64,000 nucleotides of DNA from an uncultured Gammaproteobacteria bacterium (GTDB taxonomy: Bacteria; Patescibacteriota; Patescibacteriia; UBA2196; GWA2-42-15): assembly GCA_964573135.1 (NCBI GenBank), contig CAZNIO010000006.1, positions 1,733 through 65,732 on the forward strand, in the 5' to 3' direction. Position 1 is the first letter of the stretch. Each line of letters starts with the position of its first letter. A program made the position numbers and the translations under genes. The notes below the pieces were generated by a model. The model did no database searches, was not told the origin of the DNA, and saw only the letters and a list, made by a program, of their open reading frames with translations. Below are positions 23,483 through 50,364 of this stretch, one piece after another.

Positions 23483-24553
23483 CTATTTCCTTCTCAGCTT
23501 CTCTTTAATAGGAACTTCACTATCCCAGACTCTCTTTCGGCCATCTCCTTTAACCCTATCCCAGAGGCGTATATCGCGGATCATTAATTGCAGTCCCCTC
23601 GGCTCAAGACTGGCAGATTGGTCTGATCCCCACATGGCGCGATCAAGGGTGATATGTCGCTCAATAAGGCAAGCACCAAGTACGGCAGCCATGACTGAAG
23701 GGGAGACATTGCTCTCATGCCCGCTATAACCAATAGGGATACCAGGGTATTTTTTTTGCAAGGTATGGATGGCAGACAAATTGAGTTCTTCAAAATCAGC
23801 TGGATAAGTGGAAACGGTATGAAGAATAATTAGATTATTTCTACCTAAAATTTCAAGAGCATGGTCTACTTCTTCTAAGGTGCTCATACCACTCGAGAGT
23901 ATAATGGGCTTATTTTTTGATTTAATGTGACGTAACAGATTGTCATCGGTTAAGCTGGCTGATGCTATTTTATAGCAAGGAGGATCAAACTGATCCAAGA
24001 AATCAACGCTAGCCTCATCCCAGGGGGAAGCCAGCCAAAGTATTCCTTTTTCACGACAGTATCTATCAATTTCTTTATACTCATCTAAACCAAACTCCAA
24101 TCCCCTCTTCAAATCGCCGTTGGTGGCACCAAAAGGATTTTCACGTGGTTTATCTAATTCTTCCTTGGTATAAACCACATCAATGGTTCTTTTTTGGAAT
24201 TTAATTGCATTAGCCCCAGCTGAGATAGCTGTGTTTATAAGCTGTTTGGCAATATTGATATCACCATTGTGGTTAATGCCAATTTCAGTAATGATAAAGG
24301 CGGGTTGGCCGGGACCGACTTTTTTATTACCAATAATCACGTGAGGAGTTGGGGCCTGACTGGCAGCTGGCATATTCAAAGTAACAGGTTTTTGAACCTC
24401 TTCTTTTCGTATTGGAGGCGGTGCCTGGGCTGGCTTATCATCCATGGCGCTAATGACAAATTCTTGTCCGTCTTTGACAACAATTGCCTTCCCCCCTTCC
24501 CTCCTGATAAAACTAAAAATCTTTTCCATATCATTTGTCATATTAGTTTGCAT
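23483..24553 (-). CDS. NeuB-family nonulosonic-acid synthase-like (PEP-condensing TIM-barrel) with an N-terminal extension of about 70 aa and no obvious C-terminal SAF domain
   Basis: VIIGNKKVGPGQPAFIITEIGINHNGDINIAKQLINTAISAGANAIKFQKRT matches the NeuB/PseI/LegI N-terminal core. The C-terminal SAF/antifreeze-like segment was not recognised. Confidence 0.7.
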   Translation of the reverse strand: MQTNMTNDMEKIFSFIRREGGKAIVVKDGQEFVISAMDDKPAQAPPPIRKEEVQKPVTLNMPAASQAPTPHVIIGNKKVGPGQPAFIITEIGINHNGDINIAKQLINTAISAGANAIKFQKRTIDVVYTKEELDKPRENPFGATNGDLKRGLEFGLDEYKEIDRYCREKGILWLASPWDEASVDFLDQFDPPCYKIASASLTDDNLLRHIKSKNKPIILSSGMSTLEEVDHALEILGRNNLIILHTVSTYPADFEELNLSAIHTLQKKYPGIPIGYSGHESNVSPSVMAAVLGACLIERHITLDRAMWGSDQSASLEPRGLQLMIRDIRLWDRVKGDGRKRVWDSEVPIKEKLRRK

Positions 24554-24568
24554 AATTTATAAATAAAA

Positions 24569-25462
24569 TTAATTTTTAAAAACTTTTTTCTCATCTATTT
24601 TTTTGGACTGACTGGAATCAACGGTTCTACCGGTGGGCACTCCCCAAAACTGGCAATAAGAACATAGCGGAATCTTATCTCGTTTTCCTTGTTTGTGATA
24701 TTCCAACCACTGCATGCGTTTTTTACTGTTCCAAATATCAACCAAAGATTCCTTGTTAGCATCACCGATAACTCCGATACGCTTGGGATCAAACCTGACA
24801 CAAATAGAAGCTTCACCGTGAGTATTGATAGCCAAGTGGTGCAGAAAATCCCAACAAATGCCAACCTCTGGAATGGTGGGTACTTTCTTTTTGTAATTAA
24901 AGCTACCCATGGGAGCATGTAATATCCTTCTAACCATCAAGAGATTAAATTTTTTATATTTAGCCTCATCCACTTCACCATTAATTCTTAAAACCGTGTA
25001 TGGCTTTCTCTCGCCTTTAATTTTCAAAAACTCTTGAATTAATTTATACTGCTCATCGGCGTCTCCATCCTTCTCGAAAACTGAAATAGCCAAGGTATCC
25101 AGATTGCCAATGATTTCATCGGCTTTCTTGACTAGCAACTTACCGTTGGTAACAATGTTAGTAATTTGATTAGAAAATAGCTTGGTGGCCTCACCAAAAC
25201 GCGGATAAAGCAATCCTTCACCGTTGTTGTGTAATTGAACAACTATATTTGGTGGTAATTGCTTAGCAATCTTTTCAACTAAGGCAAAGTCCATATCGCC
25301 ATACTTCAAAACTAACTCTGGATAGTCTCTCTCAGTTTTTCTGCGGCCACACATCCAACAGTTCTTATTACAACGACTGGTTAATTCTATATTAATTGTA
25401 GACAGGCCATGAAGGCTTTTTTTATTGGGCATATTTTTAGGTAATAGTCCAACCACCATCAA
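24569..25462 (-). CDS. radical SAM enzyme with a C-terminal Cys cluster (SPASM/twitch-like); paralog of 39390..40451
   Basis: INIELTSRCNKNCWMCGRR carries the CxxxCxxC motif. C-terminal Cys residues (CWDFLHHLAINTHGEASICVRF...IPLCSYCQFWG). It shares LxxTSRCNxxCxMCxR and DIWNS motifs with the 39390 ORF. Confidence 0.75.
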   Translation of the reverse strand: MMVVGLLPKNMPNKKSLHGLSTINIELTSRCNKNCWMCGRRKTERDYPELVLKYGDMDFALVEKIAKQLPPNIVVQLHNNGEGLLYPRFGEATKLFSNQITNIVTNGKLLVKKADEIIGNLDTLAISVFEKDGDADEQYKLIQEFLKIKGERKPYTVLRINGEVDEAKYKKFNLLMVRRILHAPMGSFNYKKKVPTIPEVGICWDFLHHLAINTHGEASICVRFDPKRIGVIGDANKESLVDIWNSKKRMQWLEYHKQGKRDKIPLCSYCQFWGVPTGRTVDSSQSKKIDEKKVFKN

Positions 25463-26273
25463 TAGAGATAGTCTGGCCGGTAACGTAATTGGAAGCGTCT
25501 GAGGCTAGATAAATTAAAAGTCCTTTTAAATCATTGGGGTGCCCCAATTTATGTAAGAGAGTTCTTTCTTTTAATCTTTCTAAAAATGGATCCTTTTTAT
25601 CAACGCTATTAGCGGTTTGTGTTTCAGTGTTAGAAAAAGGCCCCGGAGCGATGGCATTACAGCGAATGCCATATTTCCCCCAGAATGAGGCTGTATAGCG
25701 AGTGAGGGCGATAAGAGCAGCCTTGCGGACCCCATATGTGGCTGGGTTAAAGAATTGCTGGCCTTGGTAGAGTCTGGGATTGGGGGCGACTATACCATAC
25801 ATGGAACTTATATTTATAATGCTCCCCTTTTTCTTTTGACGAAATTGCTTGCCAATAATCTGAGTGGTTAGAACTGCCCAATAAACGCCAGATTCAAAAG
25901 CTGATTGCCATTGCTCATATTCTGAATTTTCCAAGCGTCCCTTGGTGGTATTAAAACCAGTTTTTTGACTTAAATCATCGGCATTGTTAATTAAAACATC
26001 AATACTAAATTTTTTAGTAATTTTTTCTAAAAGAGTTTCGAGTTCTTTGAGATTATAGAAATCAATTTGGAAACCGACGACGCGGTTGGCTCCATATTTT
26101 TTACGATAGACTTCAACTTGTTTTTTGAGTTTATCTGAGCGACCCATTAAAATTACTCGGGAGCCAACATCAAGAAAGCCTTGGGCGATGTATCTGCCGA
26201 AGAATCCAGTGGCACCGGTAATTAAAACGGTTTTACCTTTTATATTAAATATTTGATGAAGCTTGTCTGGCAT
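25437..26273 (-). CDS. SDR-family oxidoreductase (short-chain dehydrogenase/reductase)
   Basis: KTVLITGATGFFGRYIAQGF (TGxxGxxG) plus a catalytic SxnYxxxK (SSMYGIV...YGVRKAALIALTRY). Confidence 0.8.
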   Translation of the reverse strand: MPDKLHQIFNIKGKTVLITGATGFFGRYIAQGFLDVGSRVILMGRSDKLKKQVEVYRKKYGANRVVGFQIDFYNLKELETLLEKITKKFSIDVLINNADDLSQKTGFNTTKGRLENSEYEQWQSAFESGVYWAVLTTQIIGKQFRQKKKGSIINISSMYGIVAPNPRLYQGQQFFNPATYGVRKAALIALTRYTASFWGKYGIRCNAIAPGPFSNTETQTANSVDKKDPFLERLKERTLLHKLGHPNDLKGLLIYLASDASNYVTGQTISIDGGWTIT

Positions 26274-26274
26274 A

Positions 26275-48971: not shown

Positions 48972-48985
48972 ATTTTTATATTATA

Positions 48986-49399
48986 TTAACGATTTTCAAT
49001 ATCCCAAATATCCCATTTATCATGAGGAAAACGAATGTCATCAGCCTTGCTTTCTTCTAGGGTGTTTGAAGAGAAAAAGATAAGGATAGCATCATCAGTA
49101 AGGGTCATAAAACCATTGGCGTGATTTTCTGGAATCCAGAGGATTCTAGGCTCTTTATCTGATAAAACAAATTTTTGTATTTCCTGTGTATCAAGATTAA
49201 CGCTACCAATCAATGCAGAGCCCCTGGCAACGTAAACATACTTGTTTTCTTTTTTGTGACCATGCCAAGCACGAATATATCCGCGATGATAATTTTCAAC
49301 TTGGTAGAATCTTTTAATTTTTTCAAAATTAAAATCATTGACGAAACGGACGCTACCGCGCTCGTCGACAACTGTTCCTCCTGTAAGTAAGTGTGGCAT
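48986..49399 (-). CDS. cupin-fold sugar 3,4-ketoisomerase, FdtA/WxcM-like
   Basis: 137 aa. DERGSVRFVNDF...RGYIRAWHGHKKENKYVYVARGSALIGSV matches the WxcM/FdtA pattern (RG.H.H). Confidence 0.6.
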   Translation of the reverse strand: MPHLLTGGTVVDERGSVRFVNDFNFEKIKRFYQVENYHRGYIRAWHGHKKENKYVYVARGSALIGSVNLDTQEIQKFVLSDKEPRILWIPENHANGFMTLTDDAILIFFSSNTLEESKADDIRFPHDKWDIWDIENR

Positions 49400-49410
49400 A
49401 TGTTTCTTAT

Positions 49411-50364
49411 TTAAATTATTTTTTCATTTATAAAATCAGCATTAGAATAGATAATATTATCTGGATCTTTAATACGCGAATCTTTGATGGTCTGATATAT
49501 TTCCTGAATACCATAGCGCAGGTCGTATTTAGGTTGCCAACCAAGGGCTTTAAATTTAGCAGAAGATGCTTTGTAATTACGCAGGTCTTCAAATTTAATA
49601 TTGGCATAACTGACATTGACACCCGGGATAACTGATTGAATTTCTCGAGCAATATCACATATTTTGTAATTTTTATGACTGACATTATATAGCCCTTTAA
49701 TATCATTTTGAATACTGAAGAGAATGGCTCGACTGACATCTTTAACGTGCAAGAGCGGTCGCCACTGGCCGCCGCCAAAAACTACGAGTGGCTCTTTATA
49801 AACTGCTTTTTTGGTCAACTTGTTAACTACTAAATCCAGCCTAATACGTGAATGTTTGTCGCCCAATCCATGGAGGGTCCCCAAACGAAAAACGAGATGG
49901 TTATCAGATCTAGCGATGACGGATTGTTCGGCCTTGAGTTTACTTTCGGCATAATATGACAAAGGATTAACTGGGGATGTTTCATCTAAAAGATCGTTGT
50001 TGACGCCATAGACTGAACAGGTGGACATGAAGATAATTTTACCTGTGTAGTTTTTGGTCAACCAGTCAACGGTATTAAAATTAATATCATCGGTGACTAA
50101 AGAATTTTTAGCACAGGCACCATCGCCAACTAAAGCGGCTAGCCATATAATAATATCATAGTCGTTAACAATTTGTGATAGTTTGGCCTGATCTCTGATG
50201 TCGCCGAAAATAAAGGGGACCTTTTTCATAAATCGGCTTTCATAAACCAGATTATCATAAACAGTCACATCATATTTATTGTATTGTAGTAAATCAGTTA
50301 AATAGCCACCAATATATCCAGCACCTCCACAAATTAGGATCTTAGGCTTGGGTTGATTGTTCAT
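49411..50364 (-). CDS. NAD-dependent epimerase/dehydratase
   Basis: KILICGGAGYIGGYLTDLL (Rossmann) and YAESKLKAE (YxxxK). Confidence 0.8.
   Translation of the reverse strand: MNNQPKPKILICGGAGYIGGYLTDLLQYNKYDVTVYDNLVYESRFMKKVPFIFGDIRDQAKLSQIVNDYDIIIWLAALVGDGACAKNSLVTDDINFNTVDWLTKNYTGKIIFMSTCSVYGVNNDLLDETSPVNPLSYYAESKLKAEQSVIARSDNHLVFRLGTLHGLGDKHSRIRLDLVVNKLTKKAVYKEPLVVFGGGQWRPLLHVKDVSRAILFSIQNDIKGLYNVSHKNYKICDIAREIQSVIPGVNVSYANIKFEDLRNYKASSAKFKALGWQPKYDLRYGIQEIYQTIKDSRIKDPDNIIYSNADFINEKII

Follow-up and report, generated by a model that had tools for sequence, protein, structure and literature searches.

What would a bacterium make with an unbroken run of sugar-biosynthetic genes in which the key enzymes of nonulosonic-acid synthesis appear twice? 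This question is raised by a 64,000-nucleotide stretch of DNA (contig CAZNIO010000006.1 of assembly GCA_964573135.1; hereafter the window), whose minus strand codes at positions 23483–50364 for two NeuB-family synthases and two CMP-sugar cytidylyltransferases amidst aminotransferases, methyltransferases, and glycosyltransferases. A preliminary description of the block saw in it a locus with duplicated synthase modules. Our analysis points instead to two evolutionarily separate, widely conserved cassettes that are joined in one predicted operon and whose products are most likely two different CMP-activated ulosonic acids. We consider it likely that the whole constitutes a two-cassette ulosonic-acid glycan operon, with a proposed route that carries the glycan to a surface acceptor.

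Two distinct cassettes in a single gene run

Gene families were assigned by Pfam and NCBIfam profile scans, to which PDB, Foldseek, and BLAST/tblastn comparisons were added; gene content, families, operon structure, cassette conservation, and neighbor statistics, as given below, come directly from these tools. Where two profile scores are compared, the second is the cut-off of the model, in bits. Genes are numbered g2 to g29 by rising coordinate, with transcription proceeding from g30, which lies just beyond the block, to g2; all of them are on the minus strand.

The co-directional run was borne out by the listing of open reading frames (ORFs): 28 consecutive, tightly packed minus-strand ORFs occupy the block fully, with intergenic spacing from −26 to +48 nt, and the plus-strand ORFs within it are shadows inside the minus-strand genes. 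The profile scans likewise recovered nearly every family that had been named, with corrections chiefly to the counts. Four S-adenosylmethionine (SAM)-dependent methyltransferases (g11, g14, g19, g24) lie in the block rather than five, the fifth (55712–56662) being outside it, and there is one gene each for the class-III aminotransferase (g21) and the FemAB-like protein (g25), where several had been counted. The label TagF/KpsS-like was close: the two transferases concerned, g10 and g13, are TagB-like glycosyltransferases of the GT-B fold. The block further contains a second, very divergent DegT-like gene (g26, 46846–47859) and two genes annotated as radical SAM/SPASM proteins, g3 and g18, which the preliminary description did not name.

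Two sets of synthase and cytidylyltransferase are indeed present (g2/g5 and g17/g22); the paired genes, however, are only 25–33% identical in BLAST comparisons, namely 33% for the NeuB-family pair, 25% for the radical-SAM pair, and 28% over about 100 residues for the cytidylyltransferases. This rules out a recent duplication of the modules. As laid out below, each set has its own relatives and its own characteristic neighbors in other genomes.

A pseudaminic-acid-type cassette with conserved accessory genes

The genes g16–g23 and g27 form what we term cassette 1, which by its gene content would make a sugar of the pseudaminic acid (Pse) type. Its synthase, g17 (38318–39385), combines NeuB and SAF domains and passes the PseI model (TIGR03586, 426 vs. 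340); its best PDB match is the PseI of Campylobacter jejuni (8H2C, 260 bits), as against 161 bits for NeuB, and on the NeuB model it scores 295 bits, under the cut-off of 400. The aminotransferase g27 (47862–48971) similarly passes the PseC model (TIGR03588, 443.8 vs. 423.5) and is 68% identical to a PseC that adjoins a canonical PseB in a contig from the candidate phyla radiation (CPR), here L095. The GNAT-fold g16 (37819–38316) is PseH-like (TIGR03585, 78 vs. 93). Of the two CTP_transf_3 (Pfam) cytidylyltransferases, g22 (43365–44114) attains just 36 bits and g5 129 bits on the PseF model (TIGR03584, cut-off 206). Nevertheless, a cytidylyltransferase of the g22 type, with orthologs 43–60% identical, is the only one seen in the ±10 kb retrieved for the otherwise complete Pse clusters of Desulfonema magnum (L093) and Acetobacterium (L094), so that g22 most likely takes the role of CMP-Pse synthetase.

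The neighborhoods of three members of the g18 family (L093, L094, and L095) served as the basis for comparison. The CPR contig L095 is collinear with the window at 48–71% identity and presents, in order, an ABC exporter, PseB, PseC, a GNAT protein, a Gfo/Idh/MocA oxidoreductase, a CTP_transf_3 cytidylyltransferase, a class-III aminotransferase, a WbqC protein, a methyltransferase, a radical-SAM enzyme, and PseI. D. magnum and Acetobacterium feature the corresponding set at 34–49% identity; in the latter it is placed between flagellin/Maf and chemotaxis genes, which marks it as part of a flagellin-glycosylation island, and in the former the cytidylyltransferase and the class-III aminotransferase are parts of a single fusion protein of 696 aa (L093:4757–6847). 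PseB exceeds its model cut-off in all three loci (440–553 vs. 408) and PseG in L093 and L094 only (196–215 vs. 154).

The accessory genes of the window recur in this company. The Gfo/Idh/MocA oxidoreductase g23 (44117–45094; Pfam, and 83 bits on the model of the archaeal UDP-GlcNAc 3-dehydrogenase) has a 48% ortholog in L095, its place being taken by an aldo-keto reductase in L093 and L094. The class-III, GSA-like aminotransferase g21 (42056–43345; Aminotran_3, 192 bits), the WbqC-family protein g20 (41351–42055; PF08889, 234 bits), and the class-I methyltransferase g19 (40461–41354; Methyltransf_23), which overlaps g20 by 4 nt, all have orthologs in L093–L095, 36–65% identical for g21 and 40–59% for g19; a GNAT protein is kept there too. 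From this recurrence, the oxidoreductase, radical-SAM enzyme, class-III aminotransferase, WbqC protein, and methyltransferase are predicted to be a conserved add-on to Pse synthesis. Three further genes lie between g23 and g27: a second class-I SAM methyltransferase, g24 (45099–45755; Methyltransf_25/11), with a 36% homolog in the Acetobacterium island; the FemAB-like acyl/aminoacyl transferase g25 (45748–46845; Acetyltransf_6, and 69 bits on TIGR04421); and the highly divergent DegT-fold protein g26, in which the DegT match is limited to residues 79–143 and the lysine motif reads SFSK.

We propose that PseC, the PseH-like acetyltransferase, PseI, and the SpsF-like cytidylyltransferase would together deliver a CMP-activated Pse-type sugar, which the oxidoreductase, the BtrN-like radical-SAM enzyme described below, the class-III aminotransferase, the WbqC protein, and the methyltransferase would modify further. 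By analogy with butirosin synthesis, where BtrN acts with a partner, g18 may oxidize a sugar carbinol to the ketone that g21 would then aminate. The g20/g19 pair possibly parallels PtmG/PtmH of Campylobacter and Legionella, which convert CMP-Leg5Ac7Ac to its acetamidino and N-methyl-acetimidoyl forms; the parallel presumes that PtmG (Cj1324) is a WbqC-family protein, for which we found no confirmation.

Two side observations concern the comparison loci. At L095:13706–15937 there is a 743-aa fusion of NeuB-SAF with Epimerase_2 (NeuC/LegG-type), followed by a TagF-like transferase and a second cytidylyltransferase, which looks like a second acid-sugar module unlike that of the window. At L093:16798–21068, adjoining the Pse genes, D. 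magnum codes for a protein of 1555 aa with radical SAM/SPASM, methyltransferase, and glycoside-hydrolase-like regions.

A second cassette built around a synthase without the SAF domain

The other synthase, g2 (23483–24553), differs sharply from g17. It shows a NeuB domain only (residues 105–340), in which the metal-binding and phosphoenolpyruvate (PEP)-binding motifs are present, and falls below the curated cut-offs of both NeuB (253 vs. 400) and PseI (200 vs. 340). It is 65–75% identical to members of a very large family of about 289 aa, found in CPR bacteria, Acidobacteria, Chloroflexi, Verrucomicrobia, Bacteroidetes, Planctomycetes, and others; our search returned at least 8000 candidates at E ≤ 1e-20, a total that includes more distant NeuB-family proteins. 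SAF-less NeuB clades had been noted earlier in environmental bacteria, including Streptomyces, with no function given. The window protein carries an N-terminal extension (24340–24553, −) of roughly 70–85 aa, rich in Pro, Ala, and Gln and absent from the ~289-aa homologs, with Met-61 as an alternative start. We ruled out that it is a conserved domain, as the homologs do without it and the long tblastn matches to it were spurious.

With g2 travel a classical short-chain dehydrogenase/reductase (SDR), g4 (25437–26273; adh_short_C2), the cytidylyltransferase g5 (26275–27015), an EamA/DMT transporter, g6 (27062–27958; EamA in two stretches), and a GmhA-like SIS isomerase, g7 (28007–28585; TIGR00441, 192 vs. 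209), all of whose PDB matches are phosphoheptose isomerases. The same set can be traced in a Parcubacteria-type CPR locus, L083, which is syntenic with the window for g13 (57% identity), g10 (41%), g5 (51%), g4 (30%), g7 (40%), and g2 (75%), and in which genes for the phosphoglycosyltransferase and the Wzy_C-TPR protein that in the window flank the operon follow the g2 ortholog. L083 has no Pse genes, and its g5 ortholog occurs there all the same.

The neighborhoods of SAF-less synthases in three phyla bring together SIS_2, NeuB, and a Hydrolase_3 phosphatase of the haloacid dehalogenase (HAD) superfamily, with SDR and CTP_transf_3 genes nearby; the HADs match PDB entries for KdsC and for the 9-phosphate phosphatase of deaminoneuraminic acid (Kdn) from Bacteroides. 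In a census of 80 metagenome loci with a SAF-less synthase, many of them short, a HAD of this KdsC/Kdn-9-P type was found in 55; of the 66 loci that extend far enough to show it, 38 have the HAD immediately after the synthase. SIS genes of the GmhA-like kind occur in 20 of the 80, and homologs of g7 that are 40–51% identical adjoin the synthase in other loci. Of the 26 loci that reach 2.5 kb or more to either side, about one third have a cytidylyltransferase gene within 5 kb, and the same holds for SDR and for DegT genes.

The conserved phosphatase partner indicates a sugar-phosphate route, and we infer that cassette 2 makes its acid by chemistry resembling that of Kdn or 3-deoxy-D-manno-octulosonic acid (Kdo) rather than by a legionaminic-acid route. 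In the characterized Kdn route, mannose 6-phosphate (Man-6-P) and PEP give Kdn-9-P, which is dephosphorylated and then converted by a synthetase to CMP-Kdn. By the same logic, g7 would isomerize a ketose phosphate to an aldose phosphate of manno configuration, g2 would condense this with PEP, the nature of the substrate being read from the neighboring genes, and g5 would activate the product with CTP. The preliminary description had placed the SIS gene in the ulosonic-acid route rather than in ADP-heptose synthesis, and its presence beside SAF-less synthases in 20 of the 80 loci speaks for that placement; the accompanying suggestion, that it supplies glucosamine 6-phosphate (GlcN-6-P) for legionaminic acid, found no support; g7 would supply an aldose phosphate to the synthase instead.

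That suggestion belongs to a broader alternative, under which the locus encodes two complete classical pathways, for Pse and for legionaminic (Leg) or neuraminic (Neu) acid, with the SIS protein providing GlcN-6-P as proposed for Campylobacter. It would account for the two NeuB-family synthases and two CTP_transf_3 genes, and the g4/g5 pair of SDR and cytidylyltransferase does resemble the PtmA/LegF order of Plesiomonas and Campylobacter. Yet g2 lacks SAF and falls under both synthase cut-offs, the synthase's conserved neighbor is a KdsC/Kdn-9-P-type phosphatase, PseB and PseG are missing, and nothing specific to Leg or Neu synthesis was found: the 30 genes of the operon contain neither an Epimerase_2 match (LegG/NeuC) nor a PtmE-type nucleotidyltransferase, and the LegB model reaches at most 146 bits in the window, against a cut-off of 475. 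A reading of Campylobacter PtmF as an SIS protein of about 190 aa was dropped, as PtmF is listed as a 326-aa oxidoreductase. On this balance two classical pathways appear very improbable.

A second alternative accepts the sugar-phosphate route and questions the length of its product. As an isomerase of sedoheptulose 7-phosphate, g7 would give D-glycero-D-manno-heptose 7-phosphate and ultimately a C10 acid; starting from arabinose 5-phosphate, the product would be a Kdo-like C8 acid. The near-threshold score of g7 on the GmhA equivalog and its uniform phosphoheptose-isomerase matches favor such a product, as does the fact that the HAD neighbors match KdsC about equally well as the Kdn-9-P phosphatase and that the cytidylyltransferases weakly match KdsB models. 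However, the characterized phosphosugar-using NeuB-family enzymes of which we found an account take Man-6-P or N-acetylmannosamine 6-phosphate, and the Prymnesium enzyme rejected arabinose 5-phosphate. We also know of no ten-carbon ulosonic acid. A product other than a C9 acid accordingly strikes us as rather unlikely, even if, for g7 itself, the sequence fits either fructose 6-phosphate, leading to a C9 acid, or sedoheptulose 7-phosphate, leading to a C10 acid.

BtrN-like radical-SAM enzymes beside ulosonate synthases

Each cassette places a radical-SAM enzyme next to its synthase: g3 (24569–25462) is paired with the SAF-less synthase and g18 (39390–40451; Radical_SAM and SPASM) adjoins PseI. 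The public gene call for g3 is a 261-aa protein that begins at an internal Met and thereby loses the CxxxCxxC motif, so that Pfam then reports SPASM only. The motif is intact in the long ORF, where it is restored by a TTG start at 25462, an ATG at 25459, or Met-11 at 25432, the last being the probable start. The family of g3 comprises at least 1938 clusters at 90% identity from bacteria and DPANN archaea, the best members listed being 67–82% identical to it. That of g18 is small, with members of about 350 aa; relative to BtrN, g18 has a 75-aa N-terminal extension.

The cysteine patterns of the two families agree. In the g3 family, Cys 21/25/28 are invariant together with only four more, 193/211/257/260; in the g18 family the conserved residues are 86/90/93 and 280/299/344/347. 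The auxiliary cysteines are thus spaced by 18–19, 45–46, and 3 residues in both, a spacing that matches the auxiliary-cluster cysteines of BtrN, and the g18-family cysteines align with those of BtrN in the profile match. By this pattern, both families have a single four-cysteine auxiliary cluster, the Twitch arrangement, rather than a full SPASM domain. Profile searches against the PDB placed BtrN first for both, at E = 4e-12 for the g3 family (next, NifB at 1e-6) and E = 3e-19 for the g18 family (next, MoaA at 6e-7). The AlphaFold model of g3 (pLDDT 78) also has BtrN as its top Foldseek match (4M7T, E = 1.7e-10, target-normalized TM-score 0.66), followed later by SuiB, DesII, PqqE, SpeY (a Twitch dehydrogenase), and CteB-type enzymes.

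A role as maturases of ribosomally synthesized peptides, or as unrelated passengers, has to be considered for g3 and g18, given that their Pfam/NCBIfam label is of the SPASM type, a class dominated by peptide maturases, and that SuiB, CteB-type enzymes, and PqqE are on the Foldseek list. Set against this are the lead of BtrN over the next match, which amounts to about 5 orders of E-value for g3 and 12 for g18, the one four-cysteine auxiliary site of each as in Twitch enzymes, positions in sugar operons that are conserved across phyla, and the want of any precursor-peptide gene among those seen. In Kuenenia stuttgartiensis, moreover, the stop codon of the radical-SAM gene touches the start of NeuB. 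Taken together, these points make the maturase explanation hardly credible.

A dedicated role in sugar synthesis is also suggested by the company of the g3-type enzymes. Six of the 80 census loci (L112, L113, L132, L137, L139, L146) have one adjoining the SAF-less synthase, four of them with the order or set NeuB-SIS-radical SAM, and L132, which has the radical-SAM/NeuB pair found in the window, additionally has a 50% homolog of g4. K. stuttgartiensis has, in this order, radical SAM, SAF-less NeuB, CTP_transf_3, and Aminotran_3. This compact set (CP049055, L181:10001–14332) ends with a glyoxalase-fold protein and is flanked by B12-radical-SAM genes, with no SIS or HAD gene nearby. A class-III aminotransferase and/or an SDR adjoins the radical-SAM gene in both cassettes of the window and in the related loci.

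None of eight loci with a g3-type enzyme (the six from metagenomes, K. stuttgartiensis, and the window), some of them short, has a HAD, as against 55 of 80 in the background, which is suggestive of mutual exclusion between the radical-SAM enzyme and the phosphatase. On our proposal, cassette 2 exists in two forms: variant A combines synthase and phosphatase, variant B synthase and BtrN-like enzyme, and the window represents B. Since the synthases of the two are 68–75% identical, they probably use the same substrate. In the window, g3 and the SDR would then stand in place of the phosphatase that accompanies the synthase in most relatives. In butirosin synthesis, the carbinol of an aminocyclitol is oxidized by BtrN, and the resulting ketone is the substrate of an aminotransferase; g3 might correspondingly oxidize a carbinol ahead of reduction by g4 or of amination, or it might bring about a radical-assisted loss of the adjacent phosphate.

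Compared with BtrN (the 2-deoxy-scyllo-inosamine dehydrogenase), SpeY, and DesII, g3 and g18 are alike in the CxxxCxxC motif with four auxiliary cysteines and in their aminotransferase partners; they differ from BtrN in sequence (about 18% identity in the structural alignment) and in lying in ulosonic-acid operons rather than aminoglycoside clusters. We found no paper linking radical SAM enzymes or BtrN with Pse or Leg pathways.

Proposed transfer, decoration, and export

Two genes between the cassettes are candidates for transferring the activated acids. The TagB-like GT-B proteins g10 (31704–33017) and g13 (34959–36476) match the BFO_1060 model below its cut-off of 200, with 76 bits (E = 4e-21, positions 54–365 of 365) and 41 bits (E = 1e-10), respectively; g10 also scores 51 bits on TIGR04396. 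The HP motif reads KHPD in g10 and EHPG in g13. BFO_1060 is the homolog in strain 92A2 of the Tannerella transferases for Pse/Leg derivatives, TagB-like GT-B enzymes with an HP motif that are genetically required to add the terminal nonulosonic acid. Both genes have orthologs in L083 (41% for g10, where it adjoins the g5-like cytidylyltransferase, and 57% for g13), and two candidate CMP-ulosonate transferases fit two acids. Around them are a GT4 glycosyltransferase, g12 (33901–34962; Glyco_trans_1_4/Glycos_transf_1), the class-I methyltransferases g11 (33020–33910; Methyltransf_23) and g14 (36473–37183; Methyltransf_25/11), and a DUF218 protein, g15 (37188–37814; PF02698).

A carbamoylation step is suggested by g9 (29508–31694), a NodU/CmcH-type carbamoyltransferase (Carbam_trans_N, Carbam_trans_C) with a C-terminal extension of about 170 aa, and by g8 (28589–29515), which overlaps it by 8 nt and passes two ornithine carbamoyltransferase (OTCase) models (NF001986, 385 vs. 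306; TIGR00658, 376 vs. 281). In g8 the motifs SWMSYH and NCLP stand in place of the canonical SMG and HCLP. A function as a transcarbamylase for a substrate other than ornithine was considered on these grounds and dropped, since the best PDB match, the OTCase 3GRF (308 bits), has identical variants. We take 3GRF to be the Giardia enzyme, which works in the catabolic direction; acting likewise, g8 would make carbamoyl phosphate from citrulline and feed it to g9. Finally, g30 (50396–52180; ABC_membrane and ABC_tran) is an ABC exporter that matches the HepA, MsbA, and PglK models under their cut-offs and has a 52% ortholog at the head of L095, which makes it a candidate glycan flippase.

These components suggest the remainder of the route; substrates, products, the order of the reactions, and the acceptor are here our reading of the genes. 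A phosphoglycosyltransferase in the flank would start a polyprenyl-linked oligosaccharide, to which g10 and g13 would attach the two acids; it would be methylated and, through g9, O-carbamoylated. After flipping by g30, a Wzy_C-TPR protein encoded in the flank would pass the glycan to a surface acceptor, possibly a pilin or an S-layer protein. That an oligosaccharide capped with the acids would be assembled on a lipid and handed over en bloc to a surface protein is, we believe, a reasonable model for the locus.

Missing steps and the weight of the evidence

Several findings weigh against the interpretation developed so far, foremost among them the missing early steps of Pse synthesis. Although module 1 had been described as complete, the window has no PseB: the best SDR score on its model is 43 bits against a cut-off of 408, and tblastn with the PseB of three relatives yields just one SDR match at 27% identity. 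PseG is absent as well, with no family match and nothing found in the window by tblastn with the Desulfonema and Acetobacterium proteins, and the gene annotations of the ~10 kb that a 71.5-kb ENA contig with the same sequence adds beyond the window, in which one edge protein had no record, include no candidate for either. The absence of both means that a complete Pse pathway is not encoded at this locus. The scores of the PseH-like and PseF-like genes fall below their cut-offs, and those of g10 and g13 are far below that of BFO_1060 (76 and 41 vs. 200 bits). The KdsC-type HAD phosphatase that a sugar-phosphate route leads one to expect was searched for and is absent from the window, and the family annotations of the longer contig's flanks show none either.

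The identity of the source organism is a further point of this kind. The preliminary description assumed a small-genome bacterium, which agrees with our finding that best matches and synteny to CPR genomes probably place it among the CPR/Patescibacteria as a Parcubacteria-like member: the best homologs of g2 and g18 are from Parcubacteria, Doudna-, Taylor-, Zambryski-, and Jacksonbacteria, and Paceibacterota, and the best match of GltX (52%) is from a metagenome-assembled genome of Candidatus Magasanikiibacteriota. Other GltX matches, at ~49% or lower, are mostly from Firmicutes, so that this protein has no near relative among the genomes scanned; the placement leans on the 52% identity and on genes that readily pass between lineages, the window holding no rRNA or tRNA. 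The sequence is that of a metagenome contig, which occurs as Logan SRR5581654_15343 and also in ERZ27315536 and JGI 3300025642. We found no paper linking nonulosonic, sialic, pseudaminic, or legionaminic acids with Patescibacteria/CPR.

What might supply the PseB step is suggested by the genes in its position. Between the exporter and PseC, the slot that PseB holds in L095, the window has an extended SDR, g29 (49411–50364), and a small cupin of 137 aa, g28 (48986–49399). The former has a YxxxK motif but reaches only 29 bits on the PseB model and reads STCSVYG instead of the TDE motif; motif and score rule it out as a 4,6-dehydratase. Its best PDB match is 6VO6/6VO8, a 'putative sugar-nucleotide epimerase/dehydratease' (143 bits), and its second is Pal, an enzyme of Pse synthesis in Bacillus thuringiensis (64 bits). 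The cupin is RmlC/FdtA-like (dTDP_sugar_isom, 45 bits; FdtA, 32 bits), with RmlC 3,5-epimerases as its PDB matches. The entry 6VO6 probably corresponds to Cj1427 of C. jejuni. Cj1427 is a C4-dehydrogenase whose product, a 4-keto GDP-heptose, is not deoxygenated at C6; a cupin epimerase acts next. The g29/g28 pair may therefore stand in for PseB by C4 oxidation and C5 epimerization ahead of PseC, in which case the product would keep its terminal hydroxyl. The comparison is with the heptose modification of the C. jejuni capsule (Cj1427, a cupin C3/C5 epimerase, and a C4 reductase), with which the window shares a g29-type SDR followed by an RmlC-like cupin; the window differs in having a PseC-type aminotransferase next, not a reductase, and no heptose kinase or GDP-heptose nucleotidyltransferase. 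It is position and PDB similarity that suggest such a substitution.

The same evidence allows for a cassette 1 that is simply incomplete, either because it is decaying or because some steps are encoded elsewhere or their intermediates come from a host, with g29 and g28 serving an unrelated sugar. The lack of PseB and PseG across the window and the additional sequence favors this, all the more as the Desulfonema and Acetobacterium relatives have both genes above cut-off and L095 has PseB; g29 is without dehydratase motifs, and pathways to deoxy sugars and heptoses commonly use just such an SDR and cupin as their reductase and epimerase. A host supply would also be in keeping with the host dependence ascribed to CPR bacteria in PMC11665869. 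On the other hand, the cassette genes are intact, tightly packed, and 48–71% identical to those of L095, which argues for purifying selection, and g29 and g28 occupy the precise slot of PseB. PseG is also not found in L095 (21 kb examined), so that CPR lineages may use a different hydrolase in its place. We regard an incomplete cassette as unlikely, if deserving of some weight, and retain the two-cassette operon as the likely interpretation.

A bolder proposal combines the two departures from textbook pathways, with the BtrN-like proteins as a so far undescribed kind of tailoring enzyme in ulosonic-acid synthesis: in an ultrasmall CPR bacterium, g3 would replace the ulosonate-phosphate phosphatase and the Cj1427-like dehydrogenase with its cupin would replace PseB. 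Here g3 would abstract hydrogen from the carbinol that adjoins the terminal phosphate and either eliminate the phosphate or only oxidize the carbinol; an omega-deoxy keto acid would result, for g4 to reduce or an aminotransferase to aminate. If true, this would amount to a new way of making deoxy/amino ulosonic acids from central sugar phosphates, one that needs neither oxygen nor NAD, and the product of cassette 1 would be a Pse analog not yet described. As a joint claim, we rate it as quite improbable.

Operon boundaries and flanking genes

The close gene spacing, together with promoter and terminator sites on either side, predicts one operon of 30 genes and ~29 kb (~23434–52507). A predicted sigma-70-like promoter (52478–52507, −; TTGACA-18-TATAAT, 12 of 12 matches) precedes the first gene, which encodes an HTH_17/excisionase-family DNA-binding protein of 84 aa (52217–52471, −; PF12728; TIGR01764, 37.4 vs. 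28.8). The promoter ends 7 nt 5′ of the ATG of this gene, which suggests a leaderless transcript, with a possible dedicated regulator at the head of the operon. At the other end, 13 nt past the stop of g2, there is a terminator-like hairpin (23434–23470, −) with a 17-pair stem followed by a T run, and the next gene has a promoter-like site of its own at 23423–23395. The GT2 unit upstream of the operon has its own terminator-like hairpin with an 18-bp stem (53417–53379).

By its gene content, the operon is the body of a surface-glycan locus of ~44 kb, at about 14000–58300. The initiating enzyme invoked above is a polyprenyl-phosphate glycosylphosphotransferase (20039–21460, +; Bac_transf; TIGR03025, 387 vs. 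296), divergently oriented, with a 45% ortholog at the equivalent position in L083. The membrane protein proposed for the final transfer (17747–20005, −) is of the O-antigen-ligase/PglL type, with a Wzy_C domain and C-terminal tetratricopeptide repeats (TPRs); its 32% ortholog in L083 abuts type IV pilus genes. Other flank genes code for GtrA, a polyprenyl-phosphate-hexose-transferase-like GT2, epimerases, a deacetylase, and MetK; the methyltransferase that falls outside the block is of class I.

Further genes were observed in passing. A subtilase (S8) with FG-GAP repeats (15549–17744, −) lies between the GtrA and Wzy_C-TPR genes, within the glycan locus, and upstream of the glycan genes is a short run (57514–59717, −) of a VTC-domain protein, DUF4956, and a PgaB/IcaB-like polysaccharide deacetylase. 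Toward the other end of the window are a HEPN/NTP_transf_2 pair of toxin–antitoxin-like character (7196–7893, −), a small T4SS-pilin-like protein (11683–12228, −) with a weak match to the Mbov_0395 conjugal-transfer pilin, and ORFs that belong to no Pfam or NCBIfam family, one of 1144 aa (3442–6876, −) and three of 406, 208, and 429 aa (8328–11577, +). The tRNA and Rfam scans of the 64-kb window found no tRNA, rRNA, or Rfam element.

Relation to known systems and significance

With the CMP-Pse pathway (PseB, C, H, G, I, F) and the flagellin-glycosylation islands of Campylobacter, Helicobacter, and Clostridia, the window shares PseC, PseI, a PseH-like GNAT protein, and a cytidylyltransferase, and with the Acetobacterium island beside flagellin and Maf it has accessory genes in common. 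It departs from the pathway in having an SDR and a cupin at the PseB position and no PseB or PseG; from the textbook version in the addition of radical SAM, class-III aminotransferase, WbqC, and methyltransferase genes; and from the flagellin islands in having neither Maf nor flagellin, the context being that of a lipid-linked glycan with phosphoglycosyltransferase, ABC exporter, and Wzy_C protein.

For cassette 2, the shared logic is that of the Kdn pathway of Bacteroides thetaiotaomicron (the phosphatase BT1713, Kdn-9-P synthase BT1714, and CMP-Kdn synthetase BT1715) and of the Kdo pathway (KdsD, A, C, B), namely an isomerase for sugar phosphates, a synthase that condenses with PEP, and a cytidylyltransferase, to which most related loci add a HAD of the KdsC type. 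The isomerase of the window, in contrast, is GmhA-like and not KdsD- or ManA-like, and where the phosphatase would be expected there is a radical-SAM enzyme, accompanied by an SDR and an EamA transporter. The Tannerella forsythia transferases (Tanf_01245, TFUB4_00887, BFO_1060) and their O-glycan locus resemble the window in the family match, the HP motif, and the ulosonic-acid and methyltransferase genes nearby; g10 and g13 differ in scoring under the cut-off, and BLAST detects no similarity between the two. The Wzy_C protein with a lipid-linked Pse-type oligosaccharide may also be likened to the pilin glycosylation of Pseudomonas aeruginosa 1244 by PilO/TfpO, which uses a Pse-containing O-unit, as may the pilus genes beside the Wzy_C-TPR gene of L083. 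The likeness has its bounds: the Wzy_C protein of the window has a long TPR domain, the organism is probably without lipopolysaccharide, and pilin is here no more than a possible acceptor.

The kinds of system met here are already known, be it nonulosonic-acid clusters and Pse pathways, the logic of Kdn and Kdo synthesis, or transferases of the TagB-like type. We found no account in the literature searched of the conserved BtrN-like radical-SAM partners of ulosonate synthases. Apparently undescribed too are the mutual exclusion of g3-type enzyme and phosphatase, the SDR and cupin at the PseB position, the embedded OTCase as a likely supplier of carbamoyl phosphate, and such an operon in a CPR bacterium.

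Two uncharacterized sets of enzymes emerge from the comparison: the very large, conserved SAF-less NeuB family that travels with a KdsC-type phosphatase, and the BtrN-like enzymes that stand beside ulosonate synthases in CPR bacteria, Desulfonema, Kuenenia, and a flagellin-glycosylation island. Either could account for unassigned nonulosonic-acid masses in environmental surveys, and both may offer new biocatalysts for rare-sugar synthesis. If the CPR placement is right, a tiny genome devotes an operon of ~29 kb, within a locus of ~44 kb, to two sialic-acid-like sugars, and such a surface coating would bear on how CPR bacteria attach to their hosts or hide from them.

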